A stretch of 59,152 nt of DNA from Chloroflexota bacterium (GTDB lineage: Bacteria > Chloroflexota > Dehalococcoidia > JACPQK01), in NCBI GenBank assembly GCA_016190505.1, contig JACPQM010000021.1, forward strand, positions 1 to 59,152, read 5' to 3'. Numbering within the stretch: position 1 is the first letter of the stretch; each line of letters begins with the position of its first letter. Both the position numbers and the translations under genes were made by a program. The notes under the pieces were generated by a model. That model ran no database searches. It had not been told where the DNA came from and was given only the letters and a program-made list of their open reading frames with translations. Positions 11,593 through 26,988 of this stretch are shown in pieces.

Positions 11593-11661
11593 GTAGGGGC
11601 GAAGCATCCGCAACAGACCTCTGGCAGAGCTCATTGGCCCATCCGGATGCTTCGCCCCTAC
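11593..11661. repeat. Long REP palindrome 'gtaggggcgaagcatccg...cggatgcttcgcccctac' in the glyQS leader
   Basis: 18-nt perfect arms separated by ~33 nt. A related copy lies at 41947-42018, and an isolated half-arm copy lies at ~49440-49465 with no inverted partner. Confidence 0.6.
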
Positions 11662-12533: not shown

Positions 12534-12559
12534 GTAGGGGCGACCGGCCGGTCGCCCCT
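12534..12559. repeat. REP hairpin 'gtaggggcgaccggccggtcgcccct'
   Basis: Perfect palindrome; further copies at 19382-19409 and 19450-19477 (variant), and relatives at 28064-28091, 29990-30150 and 32095-32250. Confidence 0.6.
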
Positions 12560-12622
12560 TGACAGTACCGTCGGCAAGGGCTAGTATGTAGTCGTAAACC
12601 CTCACCCCCTGGGTGTGGGTAT
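12559..12622 (+). promoter_or_regulatory. Sigma70-type promoter (TTGACA-17-TAGTAT) plus operator 'CACCCCCTGGGTGTGGGTAT' upstream of csoR-copA
   Basis: The operator sits between -10 and the SD/ATG of csoR. Matches the GC-rich ATACCCC-N-GGGGTAT type of CsoR-family operators. Confidence 0.6.
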
Positions 12623-12907: not shown

Positions 12908-15478
12908 TTGGGCGAAACCAAACGTGCAGACGGCGTAGGGGCGCACGGCCGTGCGCCCCTACAGATGCCCATACGGGGCATGACTTGCGCCTCCTGCGTG
13001 GCCACCGTGGAAGGCGCCTTGAAGAGCGTGCCCGGCGTCAGCGCGGCCGTGGTCAACCTGGCCTCGGAGAAGGCGGCGGTGGAGATCAGCGATCCGCAGA
13101 AGGCCAACCTGCCCGAGCTGGTCAAGGCCGTCCACGAGGTAGGCTACGAGGTGGGCACTGAGAAGGTCACCATCTCCGTGGGAGATATGACCTGCGCCTC
13201 CTGTGTGGAGCACGTGGAAGGCGCTCTCCGCGAGCTGGCCGGGGTCACCCGGGCCGTGGTCAATCTGCCCACCGAGCGCGCCGCCGTGGAGTACATCCCC
13301 GGCCTGGTCGGCGTCGCCGACTTCCGGCATGCCATCGAGGATGTCGGCTACAAGTTCCAGGGCCTGGTGGAGGAGGGGGCCGCCGCTCTCGATAGAGAGC
13401 GCGAGGCCCGCCAGAAGGAGATCAGCCGCCAGCGCCGGAACCTGATCATCTCCTGGGCCCTAGGCCTGGTGATCATGGTGGGCACCTTCCAGCCGTACTG
13501 GTTCCTGCCCAGGGTCGTGCCCGCGTTCATGAACAATAAGATATTCCTGTTCTTCCTGACCACACCTATCGTCTTCGGGCCGGGCCGCCAGTTCTTCATC
13601 AACTCCTGGAATGGTCTCAAGCGCGGCCTGACCGACATGAACCTCCTCTACGCCACGGGAATCGGCGCCGCCTACCTTATCGCCGTCATCAACACCTTCT
13701 TCCCCGATGCCGGCTTCGGCGGGCGGGAGGCCACCTTCTACGAGGCGGCTGCCCTGCTCACCGCCTTCATCATCCTGGGCCGCTACCTGGAGGCGGTGAC
13801 CCGGGGGCGCACCTCCGAGGCCATCCGCCGCCTGATGAAGCTCCAGCCCAAGCGGGCACGGGTGCTCCGCGACGGACAGGAGGTCGAGGTCGCTGCCGAG
13901 GAAGTGCAGATAGACGACCTCTTGCTGGTCCGGCCCGGCGAGGCCATCCCCGTGGACGGCATGGTCACCGAAGGCTACTCCTCGGTGGACCAGTCCATGA
14001 TTACCGGGGAGAGTATCCCCGTAGAGAAGAAGGGGGGGGACGAGGTCATCGGGGGCACCATCAACAAGACCGGCGCCTTCAGGTTCCGGGCCACCCGCGT
14101 GGGCAAGGATACCGCCCTGGCCCAGATCATCAAGCTGGTGGAGGAGGCCCAGACCACCAAGGCCCCCATCCAGAAGATCGCCGACAAGGTGGCCGGCCAC
14201 TTCATCCTGGGGGTACACGCCCTCTCCCTGGCCGTGTTCCTGTTCTGGTTCTTCGTGGGCTTCGGCCTGTGGTTCAGCCCCGAGAGCCGCCTCATCCTTA
14301 CCCCCTACATGCTCACAGGTCTGGGCGTGTTCGGCTTCGCTCTACTGGTGTCGGTGACCGTGCTGGTTATCTCCTGCCCCTGCGCCGTGGGACTGGCCAC
14401 GCCTAGCGCGGTGATGGCGGGCACGGGCAAGGCCGCCGAGTACGGAATCCTGTTCAAGGGCGCCGACGCCCTGGAGAGCACCGCCCGCCTCCAGGTGGTC
14501 ATCTTTGACAAGACGGGCACCCTGACCAAGGGCGAGCCTTCCGTCACCGACGTGGTGGCCGTGGGCCGGAGCGAGCAGGAGGTGCTGCGCCTGGCCGCGG
14601 TGGCGGAGAAGAACTCGGAGCACCCGCTGGGCGAGGCCATCGTTCGAGGCGCCCGGGCCACAGGCATGGAGGTCCAGGACGCCGACGGCTTCGAGGCCAT
14701 CCCCGGCCACGGGGTCGAGGCCCGACTGAATGGCCGGACGGTCCTGCTGGGCAACCGCCGCCTTATGGCCCAGAGGAACGTCTCCCTGGACGGCCTGATG
14801 CCCCAGGCCGAGCGACTGGAAGGCGAGGGCAAGACCGCCATGTTCGTGGCCGTGGACGGCCAGCCCGCCGGTATCGTGGCCGTGGCCGACACTCTCAAGG
14901 AGACCTCCGCCCAGGCCGTCAAGGAACTCCACCGCATGGGCCTCCAGGTAGCCATGATCACCGGCGACAACCGCCGTACCGCCGATGCCATCGCCCGCCA
15001 GGTGGGCATTGACCGGGTGCTGGCCGAGGTGCTCCCCGAGGACAAGGCCAGCGAGGTGAAGAAGCTCCAGGCCGAGGGCCTCAAGGTGGCCATGGTGGGC
15101 GACGGCATCAACGACGCCCCTGCCCTGGCCCAGGCCGACTCCGGCATCGCCATCGGCTCGGGCACCGACGTGGCCAAGGAGACGGGCCACGTCATCCTGG
15201 TCAAGGACGACCTCATGGATGTGGTGGCAGCCATCCAGGTGGCCCGGCAGACCCTGCGCCTGATCAAACAGAACCTGGGCTGGGCCTTCGGCTACAATAC
15301 CGCGGCCATACCCATCGGGGCGGGCTTGCTCTACCCCTTCTTCTCCCAAGTGGTCAGCCCGGAGCTGGCCGCGCTGCTTATGGCCACCAGCTCCCTGTCG
15401 GTGACCATGAACACCCTGCGCATGAGGGGCTACATACCGCCCATCCGGCGGGCGCGGCTGGCGGAGGCGAAGGCATGA
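12908..15478 (+). CDS. copA: Copper-translocating P1B-type ATPase with two N-terminal HMA domains
   Basis: 856 aa; 2x 'GMTCASCV'; '[11 protein letters not shown]' (CPC), 'DKTGTLT', 'GDGINDAP'. Confidence 0.93.
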
Positions 15479-15672
15479 GTGCCAGCGTGATTGGCGCCGT
15501 CATCTACCTGGGCATCTCGCTGGTGGCGGCCCTGGTCTTCTTCGCCATCACCCTGGCCGGAGACTACACCTGGGTGGCCCGCATTGGCGGCAGCCTGTGG
15601 ATCTTCATGCTGGGCAACATCGTGCTCATGCCCCTAGTCATCCCCAGGGTGAAGAGGTGGCGGGGAGGCTAG
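15475..15672 (+). CDS. Small two-TM membrane protein, translationally coupled to copA (ATGA overlap)
   Basis: 65 aa, hydrophobic; start overlaps the copA stop. Confidence 0.4.
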
Positions 15673-15710
15673 CGTGGTAAGCATCGCTTGAGGGCAACAG
15701 GAGCCATAAG

Positions 15711-15980
15711 ATGCCCGTAATATCAATGTTCTATGGCATAATAGTTCAACTGTTCTTCTTCGATACAGACAAACATAATAGCCCGCACATTCACGTGAGA
15801 TATGCTGAGTTCACCGCTTCTATTGACATACACACAGCAGGAATCTTGGATGGAGACATCCCTCTGCGCCAACTTAGACTAGTCCAGGCATGGGTGGAAA
15901 TCCACCGCGATGAATTGATGGCTGACTGGGCTCTTGCCGTGGAGGGCAACACTCCGTTCAAGATTGAACCTCTGAAATAG
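15711..15980 (+). CDS. DUF4160-family protein
   Basis: 89 aa; 'HNSPHIHVRYAEF' motif; markedly AT-richer than its surroundings. Confidence 0.68.
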   Translation: MPVISMFYGIIVQLFFFDTDKHNSPHIHVRYAEFTASIDIHTAGILDGDIPLRQLRLVQAWVEIHRDELMADWALAVEGNTPFKIEPLK

Positions 15981-15990
15981 GGGGTAGTGA

Positions 15991-16227
15991 ATGATCCCAG
16001 ACGTGGTTGACTTTGAAATCCTGCCAGACTACCGGCTAAGGGTGACCCTGTCAAATGGCCGTAAAGGGGTGTTCGACGTGAAGCCATACCTTGACCGAGG
16101 AATTTTCACTGAACTGAAGGACTACAACTACTTCAGAAGGGGCAAAATCGCTTTCGGGACAATTACCTGGCCGAACGAACAGGACTTCAGCCCGGAGACA
16201 ATAGAAGCGAGGATGGAAGGGGAATGA
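15991..16227 (+). CDS. DUF2442-family protein (usual partner of DUF4160)
   Basis: 78 aa; 'LPDYRLRVTLSNGRKGVFDVKPYL'; AT-rich. The DUF4160/DUF2442 gene pair is a recurrent two-gene cassette. Confidence 0.68.
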   Translation: MIPDVVDFEILPDYRLRVTLSNGRKGVFDVKPYLDRGIFTELKDYNYFRRGKIAFGTITWPNEQDFSPETIEARMEGE

Positions 16228-16299
16228 GAAGGGGCTGGGGAGCGTAGGCATGGTAAGCCTCGCCCGGCGCAAGCCGCTTGTTGGAAAGGGTGTTTAGCT

Positions 16300-16923
16300 G
16301 TGGAACAGTGCCCCGAACCATTCGTAGTCCGGCTCGTCCGGCCCCCACTCCATATGATTCTCTGTGAGGGCTTGCGCAAGCGCACTGCCAGAGACTTTCA
16401 GGGTGTGATCGCTCAACTACTTCGGGAGATTGGTGGTGATGTGACGCCCGGGCCGATAGGAGCGGACGAAGGGGTAGACCTGCTGTGGAAGGCCACCGAC
16501 GGAGAGTTCATCGTCCAATGCAAGAAATGGAAGGCCAAAGTCGGTGTTCCTGTCGTGCGAGAGGTCTTCGGGGCGGCTATGCGGCACAAGTCCGCAGGTG
16601 CCATCATCGTGACCACAAGCGAGTTCACCGATGCAGCCAAAGACTGGACAATTGACCTCCGCATACCGCTTAGGCTGGTGGATGGCAAGCAGTTGTTTGA
16701 CTTGATGGACCAACGCATGCCAACTTTCGTGGCGAACGTCTTCAAAGAGGCCAATGTGGCTAGGTGCCCAGTGTGTGGGGATGGCGTGGACCTCCGCCTA
16801 GCCAAGGTATCCACGTCCTACGAGAACAAAGCGTATTACTTCTGGGCCGAGACTTGCCTCCGGTTGTTCCAGAGGGAACCCGGTCGCTTCGTCGGTGTGA
16901 AGTCTCCCAGAGCAGAAGGCTAG
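16300..16923 (+). CDS. Fusion protein: Mrr_cat-like restriction-endonuclease domain plus C-terminal YHS/TRASH metal-binding domain
   Basis: 'GADEGVDLLWKATDGEFIVQCKKWKAKVGVPVVREVFGA' (Mrr_cat: D..D...QCK), then 'CPVCGDGVDLRLAKVSTSYENKAYYFWAETC...FQREPGRF' (YHS-like). Confidence 0.55.
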   Translation: MEQCPEPFVVRLVRPPLHMILCEGLRKRTARDFQGVIAQLLREIGGDVTPGPIGADEGVDLLWKATDGEFIVQCKKWKAKVGVPVVREVFGAAMRHKSAGAIIVTTSEFTDAAKDWTIDLRIPLRLVDGKQLFDLMDQRMPTFVANVFKEANVARCPVCGDGVDLRLAKVSTSYENKAYYFWAETCLRLFQREPGRFVGVKSPRAEG

Positions 16924-16924
16924 C

Positions 16925-18058
16925 GTGGTCAGCATCGCCCGGCGCAACCTCTTCGCCGAACGGGGCCGCCTGTTCATAAGCGTGGGTGGGGTGGCCTTCG
17001 CCGTGTTGCTTATCCTGACGCTCTTGGGCCTCTATCGCGGCTTCACCAGGGCCTTCACCCTCTACATTGACAACGTCAAGGTGGACCTGTGGGTAGCCCA
17101 GCAGGGGGCCCGGGCCGACATGATGCACTCGGTGTCCCTGATGCCCCGGGGTACTCAAGGCAAGCTCGAAGCCGTGCCTGGAGTTGAGGAAGTGCACCCC
17201 TTCATCGGGCGCTCGGTGGTCTTTCCCTGGAAGGGAGAGGCTGTGAGCACCTACCTGGTGGGGTACGACGTGGACTCCAACCTGGGAGGGCCGCTCCGAG
17301 TGGCCCAAGGGAAAGCTGAGCCGGGGCCCGGAGAGATCATCGTTGACAAGGTATTCTCCCGCAACAAAGGGATCAGCCTGGGCGACCGGCTGCCCATCGG
17401 AGGGTCGCTGAGGGCGGACAGCAGTCCGCCCCTACAGGTGGTGGGCGTCGCCGAGGGCGGCAACACGGGCCTCTTCCAGTTTTCCTTCGTCTCCCGAAAC
17501 GAGGCCGAAAGTCTGTTGCAGATGACGGGCTTCGCCAACTACTTCCTGGTGCACCTGGACAGGGGCCAGGACCCGGCCCAAGCCGCGGCGCGCATCGAGG
17601 CGGCAGCCCCTGGGGTGAAGGCATTCACCGTTTCGGCCTTCTCCGAGAGCAACCGCGAGCTGCTCACCGAGATCTTCCTGCCTATCATCGCCGTCCTGGT
17701 GCTCATCGGTTTCGGCGTGGGCACCGTAGTGATAGGGCTGACCATATACACCGCCACCATGGAGAAGTCCCGGGAGTATGGCGTGCTCAAGGCCATCGGG
17801 GCAACCAACCGCCGCCTTTACCGGATAGTCCTGGAGCAGGCGATCATATCGGACATGCTGGGCTATGCCCTGGGAGTGGTGCTGGCCTTTGTCGTGGTCG
17901 GAGCGGCCGAGCGGTTCGTGCCCGTGTTCGTGGCCGACCTCCAAGTCCTGGACCTGGCGGCAGCACTGGGCATTGCCCTGCTCATGGGCGGACTGGCGTC
18001 ATACTTCCCGGTGAGCCGGCTGGTGCGCCTGGACCCCGCCCTGGTGTTTCGAGCGTAG
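16925..18058 (+). CDS. ABC transporter permease, FtsX/MacB-like
   Basis: 377 aa; N-terminal TM, large periplasmic domain, three C-terminal TMs; followed by its ATPase. Confidence 0.78.
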   Translation: MVSIARRNLFAERGRLFISVGGVAFAVLLILTLLGLYRGFTRAFTLYIDNVKVDLWVAQQGARADMMHSVSLMPRGTQGKLEAVPGVEEVHPFIGRSVVFPWKGEAVSTYLVGYDVDSNLGGPLRVAQGKAEPGPGEIIVDKVFSRNKGISLGDRLPIGGSLRADSSPPLQVVGVAEGGNTGLFQFSFVSRNEAESLLQMTGFANYFLVHLDRGQDPAQAAARIEAAAPGVKAFTVSAFSESNRELLTEIFLPIIAVLVLIGFGVGTVVIGLTIYTATMEKSREYGVLKAIGATNRRLYRIVLEQAIISDMLGYALGVVLAFVVVGAAERFVPVFVADLQVLDLAAALGIALLMGGLASYFPVSRLVRLDPALVFRA

Positions 18059-18059
18059 C

Positions 18060-18905
18060 ATGGCCACCGATACGGTACTCGAGCTGGTGGGCGTGACCCG
18101 GGTGTTCGGGGAAGGCGCCGGGCAGGTGGTGGCTGTGGAGAGGGCGGACCTACGGGTCGGGAAGGGGGAGTTGCTGCTTATCATGGGCCCCTCGGGCTCG
18201 GGGAAGACCACGCTCCTCACCATGGCCGGGGGCTTGCTCCCGCCCACCTCGGGCCACATCCGCCTGGGCGGCCGCGACCTCACCGCTCTGTCCGATGGAG
18301 AACTCTCCCGCCTGCGGCAGCAGCACATCGGCTTTGTCTTCCAGTCGTTCAACCTGCTGGCCGCCCTGACCGCGCTGGAGAATGTCGAGGTGGCCCTGGG
18401 GCTAGCGGGCAGGGACGGTCAGGGCGCCAAACGGGAGGCCCGCCGTCTGCTGGAGGACCTGGGCCTGGGACACCGCCTCCACCATCACCCGCGAGACCTG
18501 TCAGGTGGGGAGAAGCAGCGGGTATCCGTGGCCCGCGCCCTGGCCAACAACCCCGAGCTGGTGCTGGCCGACGAGCCTACCGCCAACCTGGACTCGCAGA
18601 AGGGCCGTGAGGTGGTAGAGCTGCTGCGCAAGGTGGCCAAGGAAATGGGCAAGACGGTCATCGTGGTCAGCCACGACCACCGCATTCGGGAGCTGGCGGA
18701 CCGGGTGCTGTGGCTGGAGGACGGCAAGCTCAAAGAGATGGAGGTACACCGGGACCCGGTCTGCGGCATGGAGATAGACCCCGCCCGGGCCAAGGCCAGC
18801 CTGGCGTACGAGGGCAAAGTCTACTACTTCTGTGCCGCAGGCTGTCTCCAGTTGTTCCAGAAGGACCCCGGTCAGTTCTTGGCGTCACAGTCATCCGCCC
18901 TGTGA
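18060..18905 (+). CDS. ABC transporter ATP-binding protein (MacB/LolD-like) fused to a C-terminal YHS metal-binding domain
   Basis: Walker A 'GPSGSGKTT', signature 'LSGGEKQRVSVARAL', Walker B 'LVLADEPT'. C-terminal 'DPVCGMEIDPARAKASLAYEGKVYYFCAAGC...FQKDPGQF'. Confidence 0.85.
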   Translation: MATDTVLELVGVTRVFGEGAGQVVAVERADLRVGKGELLLIMGPSGSGKTTLLTMAGGLLPPTSGHIRLGGRDLTALSDGELSRLRQQHIGFVFQSFNLLAALTALENVEVALGLAGRDGQGAKREARRLLEDLGLGHRLHHHPRDLSGGEKQRVSVARALANNPELVLADEPTANLDSQKGREVVELLRKVAKEMGKTVIVVSHDHRIRELADRVLWLEDGKLKEMEVHRDPVCGMEIDPARAKASLAYEGKVYYFCAAGCLQLFQKDPGQFLASQSSAL

Positions 18906-18938
18906 GGGCAACATTCACCGTTAGGAGGGACAAGACAA

Positions 18939-19106
18939 ATGGAAAAGAAGGTTGTTCTGTGTAAGGACTGCCATTGCTGCCCCGCCGTGGAGTTCGACGA
19001 GGACAGGGTGCGCATCGGCGAGGGCTACAACACGACCATTCTGACCAAGGAACAGTGGAACATTCTGGTGGAGAAGGTCAGGTCCGGGGAGCTGGGGGAA
19101 GCGTGA
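18939..19106 (+). CDS. Small cysteine-rich protein (55 aa, below the ORF-track cutoff)
   Basis: 'MEKKVVLCKDCHCCPAVEFDEDRVRIGEGYNTTILTKEQWNILVEKVRSGELGEA'; good SD 'taggaggg' 8-16 nt upstream; C-x2-C-x-C-C motif. Confidence 0.45.
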   Translation: MEKKVVLCKDCHCCPAVEFDEDRVRIGEGYNTTILTKEQWNILVEKVRSGELGEA

Positions 19107-19187
19107 CCTCGGGCAAGGCCGCGTCGGCGGTGGGCGAACGCCCTGGCGGGCGTGGAAACTTGTGTCATACCTGTGAAGGAGGTAACC

Positions 19188-19364
19188 ATGGCTAAGGACC
19201 TGGTGTGCGGGATGGAAGTGGACCCCAAGAAGGCAGCCGCCAAGTCGGACTACAAGGGGCAGACCTACTACTTCTGTGCCCCCGGCTGCAAGCGCGCCTT
19301 CGACAAGGAGCCGGAGAAGTTCCTCAAGGGCCAGGCCGGCGGCCACATGGGGATGCACCACTAG
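19188..19364 (+). CDS. Stand-alone YHS-domain protein with a His/Met-rich tail
   Basis: 'MAKDLVCGMEVDPKKAAAKSDYKGQTYYFCAPGCKRAFDKEPEKF...GGHMGMHH'; SD 'gaaggagg' upstream of ATG 19188. Confidence 0.7.
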   Translation: MAKDLVCGMEVDPKKAAAKSDYKGQTYYFCAPGCKRAFDKEPEKFLKGQAGGHMGMHH

Positions 19365-19381: not shown

Positions 19382-19477
19382 GTAGGGGCGACCGGCCGGT
19401 CGCCCCTACGATCGCCTGGTAACGTCTAATCTCGGGTACGAGCAAGACTGTAGGGGCGGACGGCCGTCCGCCCCTAC
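19382..19477. repeat. Two tandem REP hairpins ('gtaggggcgaccggccggtcgcccctac' and 'gtaggggcggacggccgtccgcccctac')
   Basis: Perfect 12-bp stems 40 nt apart, immediately downstream of the YHS gene; terminator-like / BIME-like. Confidence 0.65.
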
Positions 19478-19489
19478 GATTGCTCCGGC

Positions 19490-20059
19490 ATGGCGCTCGC
19501 AGGGCAACGTGAAGGGGTATTTGTATCTGAAAGCATGGTGACTGAGAGACCGCGACCCCGGCGCCGGGGTGTCCTCGTCCTCGTGGTGGTCCTGGTACTG
19601 GCGTTCCTGGCGATGTTCGTCTATGCTTTCCAGTCCACCGTCCTGGTGCGCCGCGCTGGCATCCCCGAGAAAGTGGGCGAGTTGGAGCTGGTCAGCAAGG
19701 TGGAAGGAGAGGCGGCCATCGCCCAGGTCGGACGCCTGCACGGCACCGACATTGCCCTGAAAGACGCTTACATCGCCAAGTATGCCCATTCAGGCCTTCA
19801 GTTGACCGCCTGGGTGGGCAAAGCAGAGGATACGACCGCGGCAGCCGAGCTGCTCCGTAGGATGGTCGAGGGCATAAACCGCGGGGGATCACCCTTCTCC
19901 AACCTGCGCCAGCAGAGGATCGAGGACCAGGGGGTGTACCAGGTGGACGGGCCAGGCGGACGGCACTACTTCTACGCCTCTGACAACAAAGTCATCTGGC
20001 TCACCCTGGAAGGCACAGGTTACCAGACTCTATTGCCGATCGCAGTGAGTGCGTTCTAG
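19490..20059 (+). CDS. Hypothetical membrane-anchored protein
   Basis: 189 aa; N-terminal TM helix then a soluble domain; no recognised motif. Confidence 0.45.
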   Translation: MALAGQREGVFVSESMVTERPRPRRRGVLVLVVVLVLAFLAMFVYAFQSTVLVRRAGIPEKVGELELVSKVEGEAAIAQVGRLHGTDIALKDAYIAKYAHSGLQLTAWVGKAEDTTAAAELLRRMVEGINRGGSPFSNLRQQRIEDQGVYQVDGPGGRHYFYASDNKVIWLTLEGTGYQTLLPIAVSAF

Positions 20060-20555
20060 CGAGGGACAAGATGTGAACAGGTTTCGCTTCCCCTGGACAA
20101 TAGGAGTCGCCCTTACCCTGGTGGCGGTCGCCCTGGGGGCGTGCTCGTCACCGGGCTCGCCGCCCACTTCGACTGCTCCTCCCCCTTCGGGAACCACCGG
20201 CAAGTCGCCCACCAACGGGCTGGTGCAGACCCACTCCGGAGGCAACGTGACCATCGAGGTGAAGTGGCGGGGGAGTCCCGACGGGTCGGGGCTGGCCTTC
20301 CAGGTGACCATGGACACTCATTCGGCAGACCTGGACCAATACGATCTGGGTAAGCTGGCCCTGCCGCCGGACGACGCGGGACGGGAGTACGCTCCGACCG
20401 CCTGGGTGTCCGCCCCGGGCGGTCACCACCGAGAAGGCACCCTGAAGTTCCCCGTGCCAGACTCCTTGGCGCTGGGCAGCGCCCGCTCGGTCCAGCTTAT
20501 CATCCGGGGCGTTGCCGGAGTGGCTGAACACGCCCTGGTATGGCAACTGGCATGA
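20049..20555 (+). CDS. Hypothetical lipoprotein (lipobox 'ALGAC')
   Basis: Signal peptide plus Cys; Pro/Ser/Thr-rich linker; beta-rich domain; start uncertain. Confidence 0.45.
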   Translation: MRSSEGQDVNRFRFPWTIGVALTLVAVALGACSSPGSPPTSTAPPPSGTTGKSPTNGLVQTHSGGNVTIEVKWRGSPDGSGLAFQVTMDTHSADLDQYDLGKLALPPDDAGREYAPTAWVSAPGGHHREGTLKFPVPDSLALGSARSVQLIIRGVAGVAEHALVWQLA

Positions 20556-20668: not shown

Positions 20669-21199
20669 GTGAGAAGACACCTTGCCGTCGCAGTGGCCGC
20701 TGCCGCGCTGCTCCTGGCGGTGTACCTGGGCATCATCACTCTGGCCCAGGGATGGTCGCACGCTCTGGGCCAAACTCTCGACCTGTGGTACTGGGTTGTA
20801 CTGCTAGCCGCTGGCTTTGGCACCCAGGCCGGGCTTTACTCCTTCATCCGCCAGGGGCTACGGGAGTCCCGACGAGTCGGGACCACCGCCTCGGTGGCTG
20901 CCTCAGGCGGCGTGTCCACCGGCTCCATGGCGGCCTGCTGCGCCCACCACCTGAGCGACGTGCTGCCCGCCCTGGGCCTGGCGGGAGTGGCCACTTTCCT
21001 GACCAGCTACCAGACAGTGTTCATCCTGGCCGGGGTGCTGTCCAACCTGGTGGGCATCACCATCATGCTGGAGGCGATCCAGCGCCACGGGCTGTCCCCA
21101 TGGGTCTCGACCTGGCCGTGGAACATGCGCCGGGTCAAGCTGGGGGCCATTGCCTCTTCGGCAGTGGTAGTATCAGTGGGCGTCGTTATGAGCCTGTAG
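20669..21199 (+). CDS. Polytopic membrane protein with an intramembrane 'CCAHH' motif
   Basis: 176 aa; 5 predicted TM helices; 'SMAACCAHHLSDVLPALG' is a potential metal-binding cluster. Confidence 0.5.
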   Translation: MRRHLAVAVAAAALLLAVYLGIITLAQGWSHALGQTLDLWYWVVLLAAGFGTQAGLYSFIRQGLRESRRVGTTASVAASGGVSTGSMAACCAHHLSDVLPALGLAGVATFLTSYQTVFILAGVLSNLVGITIMLEAIQRHGLSPWVSTWPWNMRRVKLGAIASSAVVVSVGVVMSL

Positions 21200-21313
21200 C
21201 CCTCGTTTCTGGGGAACGCGCCCCATAGCCGAGGTCCTCCTTCCAGAACGGCGCAGATTGCCGGACGCGCCCCACACTGGTAGCCTCCAGGCTGAGCACG
21301 TTGATTGTGCCTC

Positions 21314-21378
21314 TTGACACAAACCATGCGGCACCCTATAATCGAGGTTGATACCCATACCCCCTGGGTAGGGGATGG
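21314..21378 (+). promoter_or_regulatory. Consensus sigma70 promoter (TTGACA-17-TATAAT) plus operator 'ATACCCATACCCCCTGGGTAGGGGATGG' upstream of ccmE
   Basis: Perfect -35/-10 hexamers with a 17-nt spacer. The downstream pseudo-palindrome is near-identical to those ahead of csoR and the DUF1573-like gene. Confidence 0.6.
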
Positions 21379-21390
21379 AAGGAAGAGAGC

Positions 21391-21843
21391 ATGACAGGGA
21401 ACGCGCTACAACCCATGCCCGCTGCCCCGACTGGTCCCCCCAGGCCGAAACCCCACCGCCGGTGGAGACTCCTCATCGTCGGTGGTATCGTGCTGCTCGC
21501 CCTGGGCTTCCTGGGCTTCAAGGCCTTCCAGGGGGCAGCCATGTTCTACTACACCGTCCCCGAGTTCAGGGCCTCACCGGAGTACACCACGGGCGAACAG
21601 GTCCGCGTGGGGGGCAAGGTGGCGCCCGGCTCCGTGGAACGCCACCAGTCGGGCCCGGGCCTGAGTTTCGCCGTCACCGACGGCTCGGACAAGCTCCTGG
21701 TCCACTTCTACGACATCGTGCCCGATTCCTTCGCCGTGGACCAGGACGTGGTCGTGGAGGGGACCATGAGCGCCGAGGGCTACTTCGCCGCCCAGAACCT
21801 CATGGTCAAGTGCCCCTCCAAGTACGTGCCGAGAGTGGGGTGA
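21391..21843 (+). CDS. ccmE: Cytochrome c maturation haem chaperone CcmE, CxxxY variant
   Basis: 150 aa; TM anchor plus OB-fold; 'VVVEGTMSAEGYFAAQNLMVKCPSKYVP' aligns to E. coli 'VVVQGELEKG..LAKEVLAKHDENYTP' with Cys in place of the haem-binding His130. Confidence 0.78.
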   Translation: MTGNALQPMPAAPTGPPRPKPHRRWRLLIVGGIVLLALGFLGFKAFQGAAMFYYTVPEFRASPEYTTGEQVRVGGKVAPGSVERHQSGPGLSFAVTDGSDKLLVHFYDIVPDSFAVDQDVVVEGTMSAEGYFAAQNLMVKCPSKYVPRVG

Positions 21844-21847
21844 TAAC

Positions 21848-23794
21848 ATGGCCGACCTGGGATACGCTGCCCTAGTTATCGCCCTGGCCGCCGCCGCCTT
21901 CGCCACAGTGGCGCCCCTGGTGGGCCTACGCTGGCGGCTGCCAGCCCTTATTGACAGCGGGCGCAGCGCGCTCTGGGCTGCGGCTAGCCTGGTGTCCGTC
22001 GCCGGGCTGTCCCTGCTCTACCTGCTGGCCACGCGCGATTTCAAGACCCAGTACGTGTACCAGTACACCAGCAGCGATATGTCTATGCTCTACACCCTGG
22101 CCGCGTTCTGGGCAGGGAACGCCGGCTCACTCCTGTTCTGGGCGTGGACCCTGGGCCTGTGCGCCGTAGTCATGCTCATACAGAACCGAAACAAGAACCA
22201 GGCCCTCATGCCCTACGTCACGGCCATAGTCGCGGTCACCATGGGCTTCTTCGTGGGCATGATGGTCTTCGTCTCTAACCCCTTTGACCAAATGGTCTTC
22301 CCTCAGGCCGAGGGAGAGGGCCTCAACCCGCTGCTGGAGAACATGGGCATGTTCCTCCACCCACCCCCTCAGCTCCTGGGGTACATGGCCTTTACCATTC
22401 CTTTTGCCTTCGCCGTCGCCGCCCTGGCTACGGGCCGGCTGGGTGACGAGTGGATTCAGAGCATCCGCCGGTGGACGATCTTCGCCTGGCTGACCCTGGG
22501 CGTGGGCATCCTGGCCGGCGCCCAGTGGGCCTACGTGGAGTTGGGCTGGGGGGGCTACATGGGCTGGGACCCGGTGGAGAATGCCGCCCTCATGCCCTGG
22601 CTGGTGGGGACCGCCTTCCTGCACTCGATCATGGTGCAGCGGCGCCGGGGGATGCTCAAGGTCTGGAACATGATGCTCATCATCTTCACCTTCAATCTGA
22701 GCATTCTGGGCACCCTTCTCACCCGCAGTGGCATTCTGTCCTCGGTGCACTCCTTCTCCCAGTCGGGCCTGGGCCCGCTGTTTGTGGCCTTCATCGCCGT
22801 CGCCATGACCGGCTCCCTGGCCTTGCTCTACTACCGCATGCCCAAGCTCCGGGCAGAGCACGAGCTGGACTACTGGGTTTCCCGAGAGAGCACCTTCCTG
22901 GTGAACAACCTGGTGCTGGTGGGCATCGCCTTCGCCGTCTTCTGGGGCACCATGTTCCCGATCATTACCGAGGCGGTGCGGGGTGTAAAGATAACGGTGG
23001 GCCCGCCCTTCTACAATCAGGTGACGGGACCTCTCTTTCTGATACTGCTCTTGGTGATGGGCATCTGTCCCCTCATCGGCTGGCGGCATGCCTCCAAGGA
23101 CAACCTGGTCCGCAACTTCCTCTATCCCGTGGCCTTTGGCGTGGCAGCGGGCATCATCCTGTTCCTGCTCGGGGTGAGAAAACCGGCCGCCACCATATCT
23201 TTCGCTGTGCTCGCTTTTGTGACCGCAGGCATCCTCCGCGACTGGTCCCGGGCGGTGCGCGCCCGGCGCCAGATGAGGGCCGAGGGCTGGCTGCGCGCCT
23301 TCCTCCGGCTCACGGGCTCCAACCGGCCCCGCTATGGGGGCTACATCGTGCATCTGAGCGTGGTGGTTATGGCCCTGGGCATCACCGGCTCGATGTTCTA
23401 CCCACTGGAGACCACCGCCACGCTCAACCCCGGCGAGACCGTGTCCATTGGCCGCTATGTCCTCAAATTCGAGGGTGCCTCCGAGTATCAGACGCAGAGC
23501 AAGCAGGTGCTGGCCAGCACGCTGACCGTCTACACCGGCGGCGACTACCTGGGCACGGTGACCCCAGAGCGCTACATCCATCGCAACCACGATAACCCCG
23601 TGACCGAGGTGGCCATCCGCAGCACCCTGAAGGAAGACCTCTACGTTATCTACGGGGGCAAGAACCCCGACGGCACGGCCACCTTCAAGTTCAAGGTGAA
23701 CCCGATGGTCATGTGGATCTGGATCGGTTGGGGTGTGATGCTGCTGGGCTCGGCGGTGGCCTTCTGGCCGGAGATGAAGCGATGGACCGCATAG
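21848..23794 (+). CDS. ccmF: Cytochrome c-type biogenesis protein CcmF (haem lyase)
   Basis: 648 aa; ~15 TM segments; WWD domain 'WGGYMGWDPVENAALMPWL'. Confidence 0.9.
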   Translation: MADLGYAALVIALAAAAFATVAPLVGLRWRLPALIDSGRSALWAAASLVSVAGLSLLYLLATRDFKTQYVYQYTSSDMSMLYTLAAFWAGNAGSLLFWAWTLGLCAVVMLIQNRNKNQALMPYVTAIVAVTMGFFVGMMVFVSNPFDQMVFPQAEGEGLNPLLENMGMFLHPPPQLLGYMAFTIPFAFAVAALATGRLGDEWIQSIRRWTIFAWLTLGVGILAGAQWAYVELGWGGYMGWDPVENAALMPWLVGTAFLHSIMVQRRRGMLKVWNMMLIIFTFNLSILGTLLTRSGILSSVHSFSQSGLGPLFVAFIAVAMTGSLALLYYRMPKLRAEHELDYWVSRESTFLVNNLVLVGIAFAVFWGTMFPIITEAVRGVKITVGPPFYNQVTGPLFLILLLVMGICPLIGWRHASKDNLVRNFLYPVAFGVAAGIILFLLGVRKPAATISFAVLAFVTAGILRDWSRAVRARRQMRAEGWLRAFLRLTGSNRPRYGGYIVHLSVVVMALGITGSMFYPLETTATLNPGETVSIGRYVLKFEGASEYQTQSKQVLASTLTVYTGGDYLGTVTPERYIHRNHDNPVTEVAIRSTLKEDLYVIYGGKNPDGTATFKFKVNPMVMWIWIGWGVMLLGSAVAFWPEMKRWTA

Positions 23795-24273
23795 CCCGCC
23801 TGGCGGGTTTGCTCGCCCTGCTGGGGTTGGCCGCAGCGACGCCGACGGTGGCCCTGGCGGCCTCGCCGGACCAGGTCAATGAGATCGCCAGCCAGTTGGT
23901 ATGCCAGTGTGGCTGCGGGCTGGTGCTCAACAACTGCAACCACGAGCACTGCGAACCGCGTGACAGCATGCTGGCCTACATCGGCCAGGCCCTGGACCAG
24001 GGCAAGACCAGGGACGCCATCATCGCTAGCCTGGTCGAGAGCTACGGCGAGGTGGTCCTGGCCGCCCCCACCAAGCGTGGGTTCAACCTCGTGGGCTGGA
24101 TCACGCCCTTCGCCGCCATCGCGGCGGGCGGAGGCATAGTCTACCTGGCGGTGCGCGCCTGGCTGGTCTGGGGCAAGCGCACTCGGGAGGAAGCAGTGGA
24201 GCTCGCGGCGGACGACCCCTACTTGAGCCGCGTTGATGACGAGCTGAGACGCTACGAGGAAAGGATGGGTTAG
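23782..24273 (+). CDS. ccmH: CcmH/CycL-like cytochrome c biogenesis protein
   Basis: Start chosen at 'MDRIARLAGL' to avoid overlap with ccmF. Signal peptide, 'LVCQCGCGLVLNNC' Cys cluster, C-terminal TM. Confidence 0.65.
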   Translation: MDRIARLAGLLALLGLAAATPTVALAASPDQVNEIASQLVCQCGCGLVLNNCNHEHCEPRDSMLAYIGQALDQGKTRDAIIASLVESYGEVVLAAPTKRGFNLVGWITPFAAIAAGGGIVYLAVRAWLVWGKRTREEAVELAADDPYLSRVDDELRRYEERMG

Positions 24274-24741
24274 ATGGTCTGGCTGGCCCTGCTTCTGGCA
24301 CTGGGCACCGTGTTGGCCATCGCCTACCCGCTGGTGCGCCCCCGCCTCCGGGCGGCCGGGCCGGCCCCCGATCCCGAGGCCTCGGAGCTGGCGGCCGCCA
24401 AGGAATCTACTTACGCGGCCATCAAAGAGCTGGAGTTCGACTACCGGGCGGGCAGCCTTTCCCAGGAAGATTACCGGGACCTGGAGTCGAGATACAAGCG
24501 GAAGGCTGCCGCCTTGCTCCAGGTGGAGGATGCCCGCCACAGCGAGGCCGACCGCCGCGCCCAGATCGAGGCAGAGATACGCAGGCTGCGCGGCGTTCCT
24601 GCCCAGCCCCCCAAACAACGACAGGCTGCGCCGCCTGCCACAGGCCGCTTCTGCACCCAGTGCGGCTCGCCCAGCGACCCCACCGACCGCTTTTGCGCCA
24701 ATTGTGGCCATCCCCTATCCAAAGCTGGGAGTAAAGCATGA
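24274..24741 (+). CDS. Membrane-anchored protein with a C-terminal double zinc ribbon
   Basis: 155 aa; N-terminal TM; 'RFCTQCGSPSDPTDRFCANCGHPL'. Confidence 0.5.
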   Translation: MVWLALLLALGTVLAIAYPLVRPRLRAAGPAPDPEASELAAAKESTYAAIKELEFDYRAGSLSQEDYRDLESRYKRKAAALLQVEDARHSEADRRAQIEAEIRRLRGVPAQPPKQRQAAPPATGRFCTQCGSPSDPTDRFCANCGHPLSKAGSKA

Positions 24742-25916
24742 GCAAACTTCTCCGAGTCGCTCCGGGCCTGGCCAGCAGCATTGCCATCGCCCTCTGGTTG
24801 ATGGCCCCTGTCATGGCACAGGCCCCAGAGAGTGTACCTGTCCGCGGGCAACTGGTAAACGGCACCAAGGATGGACCTGTCCCCGCCAACGTCCAGGTCA
24901 AGCTGACCGAGCCTACTGAAGAAGGCCAGGAGCTGGCCCAGACCACCACCGACGCGGAAGGCCGCTACCAGTTCGCCGAGTTCGCGGCACAGGCCGGCGC
25001 CAAGTACAAGGTAACTCTGAACTACCAGGGCGCCGACTACCAGGCCGACTGGCCTCCCGAGGACCCGGCCAAGGGCCTGGCAATCATAGTGTATGAGGCC
25101 ACCACCGATCCATCGTCAATCTCCGTCAAAAGCTGGCACATCCTGGTCCAGGCGGGCCAGGGCATCCTGGACATAGACGAGTTCATGGTCTTTGAGAACA
25201 CCAGCGACCGGGCCTACGTGGGCACCCAGGTGGTGGACGACCAGGGCAGAAAGGCTACCCTCAAGTTCTCCGTTCCCAAGGGTGCCTACGGCTACCAGTA
25301 CATGCAAGGGTTAATGGACTGCTGCATGGTTCCTACTGCCAGTGGAATCGTGGACACCATGGCGGTGCTCCCAGGCACCAAAGAGGTGTTCTTCCACTAC
25401 TTTGTGGATGCCAAGTCGGGGACCTACGACCTGGCCCGGCTTGTGGACTACCCGGCGGCGGACGTCCGCCTGCTGTCGCAGGACATCGGGCCCAGGGTCA
25501 GCAGCAGTCTGCTCGCCAACCAGGGCCCGGTGACCGACGCCAACGGGACCAAGTACCTTAGCCTGACCGCCGCCAACCTGACCCCTGGCTCGGTCGTCAC
25601 CGCCAGCTTCACCGGGGTCCCCACGAAGGGCCTCCAGAGCAACCTGCGCTGGCTGGGCGTAGGCGTGCTGGTGCTCGCCGTGGGGGGCGTGGCCGTGGCC
25701 TACCCCGTGCTGCGCCGGCGGGGTAGGGGCCGCGAAGCCGAAGCCGAGTCCCCTACCTCCACCTCGGAGCGCGAGCGCCTCCTGTTCGAGGTGGCCGACC
25801 TGGACAACCGCTACGAGCGTGGCGAGGTCCCCGAGGCCGAGTACCAGTCCCGGCGCAAAACGCTGATGGACATCCTGGTCTACCTCTCCGAGCAAGAGAA
25901 GGGTGACGACGAGTAG
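24738..25916 (+). CDS. Secreted protein with a carboxypeptidase-regulatory-like beta-sandwich domain, C-terminal TM anchor and acidic tail
   Basis: Signal peptide; 'VRGQLVNGTKDGPVPANVQVKL...TTTDAEGRYQFAEF'; TM 'WLGVGVLVLAVGGVAVAYPVL'. Confidence 0.5.
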   Translation: MSKLLRVAPGLASSIAIALWLMAPVMAQAPESVPVRGQLVNGTKDGPVPANVQVKLTEPTEEGQELAQTTTDAEGRYQFAEFAAQAGAKYKVTLNYQGADYQADWPPEDPAKGLAIIVYEATTDPSSISVKSWHILVQAGQGILDIDEFMVFENTSDRAYVGTQVVDDQGRKATLKFSVPKGAYGYQYMQGLMDCCMVPTASGIVDTMAVLPGTKEVFFHYFVDAKSGTYDLARLVDYPAADVRLLSQDIGPRVSSSLLANQGPVTDANGTKYLSLTAANLTPGSVVTASFTGVPTKGLQSNLRWLGVGVLVLAVGGVAVAYPVLRRRGRGREAEAESPTSTSERERLLFEVADLDNRYERGEVPEAEYQSRRKTLMDILVYLSEQEKGDDE

Positions 25917-25946
25917 CCGCCCTCCTCTTGACCAGCTAATGGCGGA

Positions 25947-26639
25947 ATGGGGAGCCACACGCAAATGCGCATCAACAATCTGACGCTTGGTCTGATTGCG
26001 GCCGGCATGGTGGCCGCGCTCTATCTGGCCTTCCTGTATGCCCCCACCGAGGCCATGATGGGCGACGTGCAGCGCATCTTCTACTTCCACGTGCCCATGG
26101 CCTGGGTGGCCTTCCTGGCCTTTGGGGTGGTGTTCGCCGGGTCGGTGCTCTACCTGTGGAAGGGGGAAGAGCGCTGGGACCGGCTGGCCTACGCCGCCGC
26201 CCATCTGGGCGTCATCTTCACATCGCTGAACGTGGTCACCGGCATCCTGTGGGCCAAGCCCATCTGGGGGACGTGGTGGGTATGGGACCCCCGGCTGACC
26301 ACCACCACGGTGCTCTGGATCATCTACATCGCCTACCTGGTGGTGCACAATGCCGCCGAGACCGGGCGCGGGTCACACTTCGCCGCCGTGTTCGGCATCG
26401 TGGGCTTCGTGGATGTCCCCGTGGTCTACATGTCCATACGCTGGTGGCGGACGATGCACCCGGCGCCGGTCATCGCCGGCGGCAGCGATAGCGGCCTGGC
26501 CCCGTCCATGCTGTTTACCCTGCTGTTCAGCGTGGGGCTGTTCACGCTGTTCTTCGTCTACCTCCTCCGTCAGAGTCTCAGCCTGAGCCACCTGGAGGCG
26601 GAGGTCGAGAGACTTTCCCAGGAGGAGCGCGGTGGATAA
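25947..26639 (+). CDS. ccmC: Haem exporter protein CcmC
   Basis: 230 aa; WWD domain 'WGTWWVWDPRLTTT'; conserved His-containing loops. Confidence 0.85.
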   Translation: MGSHTQMRINNLTLGLIAAGMVAALYLAFLYAPTEAMMGDVQRIFYFHVPMAWVAFLAFGVVFAGSVLYLWKGEERWDRLAYAAAHLGVIFTSLNVVTGILWAKPIWGTWWVWDPRLTTTTVLWIIYIAYLVVHNAAETGRGSHFAAVFGIVGFVDVPVVYMSIRWWRTMHPAPVIAGGSDSGLAPSMLFTLLFSVGLFTLFFVYLLRQSLSLSHLEAEVERLSQEERGG

Positions 26640-26829
26640 CAACACGGGATTCCTGTTTGCCGGCTACGCCATTATCTGGCTGGCCTTCTTCGGCTACTGC
26701 TACCGGCTCTCCCGCCGCCTGGATTACCTGCGACGTCGGTTGGATGCGCTCAAACGAGGAGAGGCTGGCGAGCCACGGGCCAGTCCAGAGGTGGCAGCCG
26801 CCCAGACCGGAGAAACGGCACCGTTGTAG
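26632..26829 (+). CDS. ccmD: Haem exporter protein CcmD (small single-TM)
   Basis: 65 aa; 'FLFAGYAIIWLAFFGYCYRLSRRL'; overlaps the ccmC end. Confidence 0.6.
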   Translation: MDNNTGFLFAGYAIIWLAFFGYCYRLSRRLDYLRRRLDALKRGEAGEPRASPEVAAAQTGETAPL

Positions 26830-26988
26830 ATCTGGGTCTGGGCGGCCACAGGCCCCGCCCCGATCCCCGTAGCCCGTAGCCCGTAGCCCGTTTGAGCCTT
26901 GACAGCCCAAGCTGGCCTACCTATAATTCAGGCGTTCTTGCCACGGAGGAGGTCGTTAGGTTTGTTCCTGTCCAGGGGGTGAGGCGCC

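Follow-up and report, generated by a model that had tools for sequence, protein, structure and literature searches.

What kind of cytochrome c maturation (Ccm) system is encoded by an operon in which a cysteine takes the place of the haem-binding histidine of CcmE, two genes here called X1 and X2 follow ccmH, and ccmA, ccmB and ccmG are absent? This question is raised by positions 21391-26829 of the window, the whole 59,152-bp stretch analysed, which is an entire Chloroflexota contig (JACPQM010000021.1); statements about absent genes cover this contig, that is, 21 kb upstream and 32 kb downstream of the operon. The seven tightly packed + strand genes found there probably make up an intact, functional-type cytochrome c maturation operon of the kind known as System I*, and from synteny, gene fusions, topology and weak profile similarity we infer that X1 and X2 provide a CcmI-like adaptor and an apocytochrome platform in the CcmF/H complex. 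The features are as follows:

21314-21342, + strand: sigma-70-type promoter of the ccm operon (TTGACA-17 nt-TATAAT, 12 of 12 matches)
21391-21843, + strand: ccmE, membrane-anchored Cys-type haem chaperone (KCPSKY; System I*; PF03100, 98.7 bits)
21848-23794, + strand: ccmF, haem lyase/holocytochrome c synthetase core (PF01578 and PF16327)
23782-24273, + strand: ccmH-like gene, product here called CcmH* (PF03918, 55.5 bits against a gathering score of 25)
24274-24741, + strand: X1, 155 amino acids (aa), with a membrane helix, a CcmI-N-like segment and a single zinc ribbon (PF13240, 28.3 bits)
24738-25916, + strand: X2, 392 aa, with a signal peptide, three predicted beta-sandwich domains and a membrane helix; member of a large unnamed family
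25947-26639, + strand: ccmC, which loads haem onto CcmE (PF01578; TIGR01191, 135 bits)
26632-26829, + strand: ccmD of the alternative CcmD family, small membrane protein (TIGR04391 CcmD_alt_fam, 34.7 bits, cut-off 24)

The gene order given in a preliminary description of this DNA, ccmE-ccmF-ccmH, two further genes, then ccmC-ccmD, is confirmed by the open reading frame (ORF) coordinates together with the family profile matches. For the ccmH-like gene, the listed ORF runs from a mechanically assigned GTG (23713-24273), and in a relative the gene is called from the position equivalent to 23782, the likely start (M24). That description had allowed for a fragmentary pseudo-operon, but the cluster is intact: the WWD motifs and histidines of CcmF and CcmC are in place, and the ratio of nonsynonymous to synonymous substitution (dN/dS) against the relative L005 is 0.12-0.32 for all seven genes, which indicates purifying selection. 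Amino acid identity to L005 is 76-89% for six of the genes and 62% for ccmD. With such ratios, and with relatives sharing the same X2-ccmC-ccmD junction, the cluster is neither a pseudo-operon nor a recent accident. CcmE, CcmF and CcmC alike miss the NCBIfam equivalog or subfamily cut-offs, and so are clear homologues, yet distant from the proteobacterial proteins.

Using phmmer against PDB chains, the stretch MVKCPSKYVP of the window CcmE was found to align to LAKHDENYTP of E. coli CcmE (8ce8_E, 1sr3_A), with the cysteine on H130 and the tyrosine on Y134, and also to TKCPLE of the Cys-type CcmE of Desulfovibrio vulgaris (2kct). The reading of KCPSKY at the position of the haem-binding histidine is thus borne out, the histidine not having been missed through misalignment, and C-P-S-K-Y is invariant among all 24 CcmE homologues retrieved. 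The protein lies below every NCBIfam equivalog cut-off (85 versus 126) and is divergent from proteobacterial CcmE. System I* is reportedly also treated by Allen et al. in 2006 and by Goddard et al. in 2010. According to Stevens et al., 2011 (PMC3601427), in System I* a cysteine replaces the histidine of CcmE, the CPSKY motif occurs in 25 of the 36 bacterial genomes examined, the carriers are delta-proteobacteria, Chloroflexi and Firmicutes, CcmH is present in about one third of System I* bacteria, CcmG is undetected, and the Desulfovibrio system needs neither CcmH nor CcmG to work in E. coli. Gupta et al., 2022 (PMC9084895) found through Methanosarcina genetics that the Cys of CxxxY is required, and that the archaeal System I* needs CcmABCEF, which suffices in Methanosarcina. 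Cys-type CcmE itself is consequently not new, being already known as System I* with Chloroflexi included; the preliminary description was right that CxxxY variants are known, though their published range extends beyond the archaea and sulfate reducers that it named (PMC3601427). Like System I*, the window operon has Cys for His in CcmE in the CPSKY form, contains CcmC, CcmD and CcmF, and has no detectable CcmG. Unlike the described systems, which have CcmAB, it is without ccmAB, and whereas the examples studied by experiment (Desulfovibrio, Methanosarcina) are without CcmH, it has CcmH*.

CcmF aligns over its full length to Thermus thermophilus CcmF (6zmq, E 3e-93), which it matches in the WWD motif (GWGGYMGWDPVENAALMPWL) and in the His-containing stretches. 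CcmC aligns to E. coli CcmC (7f02, E 2.4e-25), where YFHVP, WGTWWVWDPRLT and WWRTMHP correspond to the His/WWD/His stretches, and ccmD is kept 3' of ccmC in relatives. CcmC, CcmD and CcmE are thus homologous to members of the E. coli CcmABCD-CcmE complex (7f02, 8ce8), with the haem-handling motifs of CcmC conserved; the difference is that the release module CcmA2B2 is encoded neither in the operon nor elsewhere on the contig. A dedicated lyase of the NrfEFG type was also considered and rejected: the NCBIfam models for NrfE and CcmF score alike, each below its cut-off, and a general Ccm system is favoured because ccmC, ccmD and ccmE are present.

CcmH* consists of a signal peptide, a periplasmic five-Cys domain, a membrane helix and a conserved cytoplasmic tail (DDELRxY/LD). 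Its five cysteines are invariant across 19 orthologues; in the window they are arranged as C-Q-C-G-C-x6-C-x4-C (LVCQCGCG, with no CXXC), and in the orthologues as C-x-C-G-x-C or C-x-C-G-C. A single-sequence phmmer search against the PDB gave no matches, but the profile of the 19-sequence family did match E. coli CcmH 2kw0 (E 1.3e-5) and P. aeruginosa CcmH 2hl7. In that alignment the segment ELvCtCgC falls on ELRCPK-C of the E. coli and P. aeruginosa proteins, so that the classical, redox-active LRCXXC motif of PF03918 CcmH is replaced. Redox activity is known for CGC motifs, for instance in Erv2 and in CXC peptides. As in CcmFHI of Rhodobacter capsulatus and in CcmF-CcmH of E. coli, a CcmF core is accompanied by a single-pass CcmH with a Cys-containing periplasmic domain, but where classical CcmH has LRCXXC, CcmH* has CxCGC (or CxCGxC) and two more invariant cysteines. 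In many Acidobacteriota (L009-L026, L031; for example L031 4702-7203) CcmF and CcmH form one ORF of about 825-833 aa, a fusion backed by an independent gene call with PF01578, PF16327 and PF03918 in one product. Together with the CcmH::CcmI fusion of E. coli, it suggests a single complex. A structure model made from the single CcmH* sequence reached a predicted local distance difference test score (pLDDT) of only 43 and was discarded.

All 19 loci obtained from a GTDB scan, which was seeded only with an X2 alignment dominated by acidobacterial sequences and returned Acidobacteriota only, have the order ccmE-F-H-X1-X2-A-B-C-D as far as their contigs reach, and this makes 20 of 20 Acidobacteriota loci overall, to which 4 other distinct places with this order are added. 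In these scan loci the readable CcmE genes, 17 of 17, end in KCPSKY; the copy in L021 appears disrupted. At the other loci with X1 and X2, too, every readable CcmE gene has KCPSKY. The same order is present in a Chloroflexota locus lying beside multihaem cytochrome genes (L007), in an unassigned metagenome lineage (L003/L004), in a JGI contig and in L031, and the order X1-X2 is also kept in the Chloroflexota loci L005/6, L007, L008, L028 and L029. Between ccmH and ccmA, the proteins at these loci are 20-35% identical across the two phyla. X1 lies between ccmH and X2 at every locus whose sequence reaches it, and in a Dehalococcoidales locus only ccmH-X1-X2 is kept, next to a multihaem cytochrome gene. 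Synteny shows X1 and X2, as far as gene order can tell, to be ancestral members of an operon of the type ccmE-F-H-X1-X2-A-B-C-D, tied most tightly to ccmH. The suggestion that they are lineage-specific accessory factors inserted into the operon is therefore half right: accessory factors they do resemble, but they occur in Chloroflexota, in all 20 Acidobacteriota loci and in the unassigned lineage, and were not inserted. Relatives have the same two genes between ccmH and ccmA; the derived trait of the window lineage is instead the absence of ccmAB.

That ccmA, ccmB and ccmG are absent, as noted from inspection, is upheld by tblastn and Pfam scans of the contig. With the CcmB of a relative as tblastn query, nothing was found on the 59-kb contig; with CcmA, the one match was a generic ABC ATPase (18060-18905, 34% identity), which carries a YHS domain and lies beside an FtsX/MacB permease. 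This MacB-type ABC pair (16925-18905) was rejected as a CcmAB substitute on account of its FtsX permease, its YHS domain and its merely generic ABC similarity. Neither CcmB nor a thioredoxin fold appeared in Pfam scans of 47 of the larger ORFs of the window, all of the longest included, and no TrxA-like tblastn match or in-frame WCxxC was seen in it, a weak test as the TrxA query was approximate. X2 ends at 25916 and ccmC starts at 25947, and these 30 nt leave no room for ccmAB remnants. The ccmAB-less X2-ccmC-ccmD junction is common to the window, to L005/L006 (X2 79% identical) and to L028 (X2 69%), and in the relatives whose operons lack ccmAB, no ccmB occurs within 10 kb of the cluster. 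By its distribution, then, the ccmAB-less state is a derived one, shared and maintained across three related lineages.

It is fairly likely that ccmAB are encoded elsewhere in the genome. This is favoured because split ccm loci exist -- in L001/L002, ccmC-ccmD-ccmE stand alone, free of the other genes -- and because CcmA is needed for haem transfer in E. coli, where CcmAB are essential for release of holo-CcmE and the CcmA ATPase activity is required for passing the haem onward (PMC3601427). The alternative is a System I without CcmAB, in which holo-CcmE would leave CcmC/CcmD without ATP-driven release; this might happen spontaneously, given a Cys-haem CcmE or a monoderm-like envelope, or X1/X2 or an unrelated ABC system might substitute. 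The absence of ccmB from the contig and from the 10-kb surroundings in relatives would fit this, as would the short X2-ccmC spacer, devoid of remnants, in all three lineages, the purifying selection on the genes and the free-standing ccmC-ccmD-ccmE of L001/L002. More distant relatives all keep ccmAB in the operon, however, and the E. coli requirement for the CcmA ATPase (PMC3601427) is matched by that of the archaeal System I* for CcmABCEF (PMC9084895); with split ccm loci common and the genomes being incomplete metagenome-assembled genomes (MAGs), a second locus is the simpler explanation, and release without CcmAB is regarded as rather unlikely.

X1 has an N-terminal membrane helix, basic residues, a conserved cytoplasmic segment (IKELEFDYRAGSLSQEDY; IKELEFDxxxGxLSxxDY) and a C-terminal zinc ribbon. 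What had been described as a membrane protein with a double zinc ribbon does have the helix and the ribbon, but the ribbon is single (one CxxC-x10-CxxC), with PF13240 passing at 28.3 bits and the match to the double zinc ribbon family DZR partial and below cut-off. Against TIGR03142, the "leucine-zipper-like" N-domain of CcmI, X1 scores 18.9 bits (cut-off 29.3), and four of 12 orthologues, X1 and three others, match this model below cut-off, at best with E 4.2e-5. Profile scans found no tetratricopeptide repeat (TPR) domain in X1 or X2, so that the periplasmic TPR region typical of CcmI/CycH is not seen in either. X1 bears some resemblance to the membrane and cytoplasmic N-terminal region of CcmI, but differs in having neither a second membrane helix nor a periplasmic TPR domain, and in carrying a cytoplasmic zinc ribbon instead; the periplasmic module is here a separate beta-sandwich protein, X2, rather than the TPR domain of CcmI. 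In L020, X1 and X2 form a single 592-aa ORF (2796-4574), where a MAG sequencing error is possible. In the closest relatives, L005/L006 (9345-10001), an in-frame stop and some 64 inserted codons break up X1, and in L003/4 the zinc ribbon is wholly absent. The translation of the L005/L006 insertion (LALRRDQGERSGFGPLMVSLSNHER) looks like a repeat of the REP (repetitive extragenic palindromic) or MITE (miniature inverted-repeat transposable element) type, with the zinc-ribbon part in frame downstream. In one relative, X2 is followed by a separate Zn-ribbon/TPR gene.

The AlphaFold2 model of X2 is confident (pLDDT 85.8) and shows a signal helix, beta-sandwich domains at residues 34-118, 128-224 and 229-292, a helix in the membrane (299-325) and, in the cytoplasm, a helical hairpin (342-390). 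As modelled, X2 is a type I membrane protein with three periplasmic beta-sandwich domains, the first of them transthyretin/CarboxypepD_reg-like. The preliminary description called it a secreted carboxypeptidase-regulatory-like protein; the signal peptide and the first domain agree with this, but the C-terminal membrane helix means that it is not secreted in soluble form. In structure it comes closest to Ost1/ribophorin I (6c26, 6s7o, 8b6l), an accessory subunit of the eukaryotic oligosaccharyltransferase, with template-modelling scores (TM-scores) of about 0.3 and identity of about 10%. X2 differs from Ost1 in having the additional transthyretin-like first domain and in belonging to an entirely different pathway and domain of life, and the likeness is best taken as an architectural analogy rather than as demonstrated homology. 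Across 121 X2 members, the only invariant residues are G, N, T, F, P, R and L, with no invariant Cys, His or Met, which favours a scaffold or chaperone over a redox or haem-binding role. Several Chloroflexota members conserve the motif GLMDCC, with its pair of neighbouring cysteines (residues 191-197, about 25308-25328); it was rejected as a general redox site of X2, since P0031 (a Dehalococcoidales member), P0032, L003 and the Acidobacteriota-dominated consensus are without it. Compared with the X1 profile by hhalign, the cytoplasmic tail of X2 gives a match (E 5.5e-5, probability 66%), and CcmH*, X1 and X2 each have one membrane helix and a conserved acidic/helical cytoplasmic tail. The X2 family comprises 8,884 representatives of 50%-identity clusters at E <= 1e-3, or 1,925 at E <= 1e-30. 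The only names given to its members at source are "hypothetical protein" and "carboxypeptidase regulatory-like domain-containing protein", and among the X2 homologues listed none has a precomputed Pfam domain on record.

Three further genes lie upstream of the operon. U1 (19490-20059), a 189-aa membrane protein with no Pfam match, is situated 1.3 kb upstream of ccmE and has a homologue directly downstream of X2 in the Chloroflexota locus L008 (5432-5944; 37% identity, E 1e-19), so that it too may be a ccm-associated gene. U2 (20049-20555, lipoprotein-like) and U3 (20669-21199, a membrane protein with an AACCAHH motif) have no family matches.

From homology and conserved motifs, CcmC and CcmD would load haem onto the cysteine of CcmE (CPSKY), and CcmF with the five-Cys CcmH* would form the lyase that moves it to the CXXCH sites of exported apocytochromes. 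X1 and X2 would sit within this CcmF/H haem-ligation complex in place of the classical CcmI, X1 supplying a CcmI-N-like membrane anchor and cytoplasmic segment, and X2 acting in the periplasm as a beta-sandwich platform to hold unfolded apocytochrome (or holo-CcmE) or to present it to CcmF, comparable to the place of Ost1/ribophorin I beside the oligosaccharyltransferase. The related cytoplasmic helical tails of CcmH*, X1 and X2 could bundle the three together. The window lineage has lost ccmAB from the operon, and a CcmAB encoded elsewhere would release holo-CcmE.

Several points weigh against this model. The function given to X1 and X2 draws on gene neighbourhood and on weak profiles, namely the sub-cut-off TIGR03142 match and the 66% hhalign probability. 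The zinc ribbon of X1 appears dispensable, being cut off in L005/L006 and missing in L003/4. Beta-sandwich tandems are common, and at the low TM-scores and identity given above the likeness of X2 to Ost1 may carry no functional meaning. The contig has no gene for a c-type cytochrome, in the sense of an exported CXXCH protein, and ccmAB, essential in E. coli (PMC3601427), are found neither in the 21 kb upstream nor in the 32 kb downstream.

X1 and X2 could also be passengers, with a function apart from haem ligation, for instance as envelope or surface proteins that share the transcript because this is convenient for regulation, or as substrate-specific helpers for particular multihaem cytochromes and not general parts of Ccm. 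The modules of X2 are generic beta-sandwiches of a kind also found in pilins, adhesins and peptidase N-domains, and it has no invariant Cys, His or Met; moreover, the archaeal CcmABCEF works without such a partner (PMC9084895), and so does the Desulfovibrio System I* in E. coli, even without CcmH/CcmG (PMC3601427). This explanation is nevertheless judged improbable. The two genes have held their place between ccmH and ccmA across two phyla at 20-35% identity, the ccmH-X1-X2 trio stays together when the remaining genes are elsewhere, and one fused X1::X2 ORF, the CcmI-N likeness of X1 and the tail motif common to X1 and X2 all connect them.

The preliminary description further proposed that, together with an upstream operator, the cluster had been co-opted into metal regulation. 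A rival explanation along these lines would make it a decaying or copper-regulated remnant, which had lost ccmAB and was degrading or being recruited to a copper island under a metal-responsive operator. The flanking genes do include a P-type ATPase (12908-15478), YHS proteins (16300-19364) and CopC/CopD (33858-35858), and perfect 28-nt palindromes are present at 19382-19409 and 19450-19477; equating these with the proposed operator is our assumption. They lie 1.9 kb and three genes upstream of ccmE, however, and the operon has its own promoter. L005 keeps the two hexamers of this promoter but shows unrelated sequence farther upstream. Similarity between the window and L005 DNA spans only 21304-26723, that is, the operon and its promoter. 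No inverted repeat of at least 8 nt occurs in 21150-21420, and in the 5' leader only a 5-bp stem is seen, CCCCT-GGGT-AGGGG. In relatives, the genes around the operon are not those for copper but ClpPX, enoyl-CoA hydratase, pterin-binding, Opp and AspRS genes.

The palindrome itself has the form GTAGGGGCG-N10-CGCCCCTAC, and the window holds 18 occurrences of its half-site where 0.9 would be expected. Copies of the element are found at 12534-12561, 12935-12962, 19382-19409 and 19450-19477, three of them perfect over 28 nt, with further half-sites at 11593/11653, 17427, 28064, 31724, 32099-32247 and 41947/42018; several copies are close to the ends of called ORFs, and they also follow unrelated genes. 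Judged by this distribution, the supposed operator is a dispersed REP-like repeat. With the ORFs intact and their catalytic motifs in place, with selection acting on all seven genes, and with the same operon occurring in unrelated neighbourhoods, the idea of a decaying or copper-regulated remnant is highly improbable; co-option into metal regulation is not upheld, and the nearby copper genes are neighbours by accident of location.

Other features of the contig may be recorded briefly. The copper/metal island takes in 12908-19364 and 33858-35858. Its P-type ATPase has two HMA domains (12908-15478), and this is followed by a fusion of an Mrr-like nuclease to YHS (16300-16923), a MacB-type FtsX permease with an ABC ATPase that has YHS at its C-terminus (16925-18905), and a stand-alone YHS protein (19152-19364). 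It is unusual to find YHS joined to a nuclease or to an ABC ATPase. Between the ABC-YHS and YHS genes lies a 55-aa Cys-rich ORF (MEKKVVLCKDCHCCP...; 18939-19106) which may bind metal; its CKDCH is not a cytochrome c site, as there is no signal peptide. CopC and CopD are fused at 33858-35858. Just after ccmD, the next transcription unit begins at another perfect TTGACA-17-TATAAT promoter (26899-26927), downstream of which are a split pair of thiamine pyrophosphate enzyme genes (26989-28067) and an aldehyde:ferredoxin oxidoreductase (28117-29985). A 187-aa ORF at 31600-32163 matches only the C-terminal ~100 residues of AFOR_C and probably represents a piece of a second aldehyde:ferredoxin oxidoreductase gene, with REP-like copies behind it (32099-32247). 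There are also an IS630-like DDE_3 transposase (6731-7873) and three consecutive large SPFH/Band-7 paralogues (49614-51347, 53231-54787 and 54805-56763).

What appears new beyond System I* itself are the conserved X1/X2 partners, the five-Cys CcmH, often fused to CcmF, and the lineage-wide ccmAB-less operon; none of the three was found in the searchable literature. A far-reaching version of the proposal, in which CcmH*-X1-X2 would be an undescribed apocytochrome-handling module of System I* replacing CcmI and CcmG in Chloroflexota, Acidobacteriota and others, with X2 as its Ost1-like platform, and in which maturation in the window lineage would proceed through CcmC/D/E/F with no CcmAB anywhere in the genome, has only a small chance of being right.

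How System I* maturation proceeds without CcmG, and often without CcmH/CcmI, has been an open question since 2006, and the Desulfovibrio and Methanosarcina examples gave no candidate replacement proteins. The operon type described here, widespread in soil Acidobacteriota and Chloroflexota, offers candidates in the five-Cys CcmH, the CcmI-N-like X1 and the Ost1-like X2 family. The ccmAB-less operon of three lineages is a natural experiment on whether holo-CcmE must always be released at the expense of ATP, and thousands of "hypothetical proteins" could gain a ccm-associated annotation.

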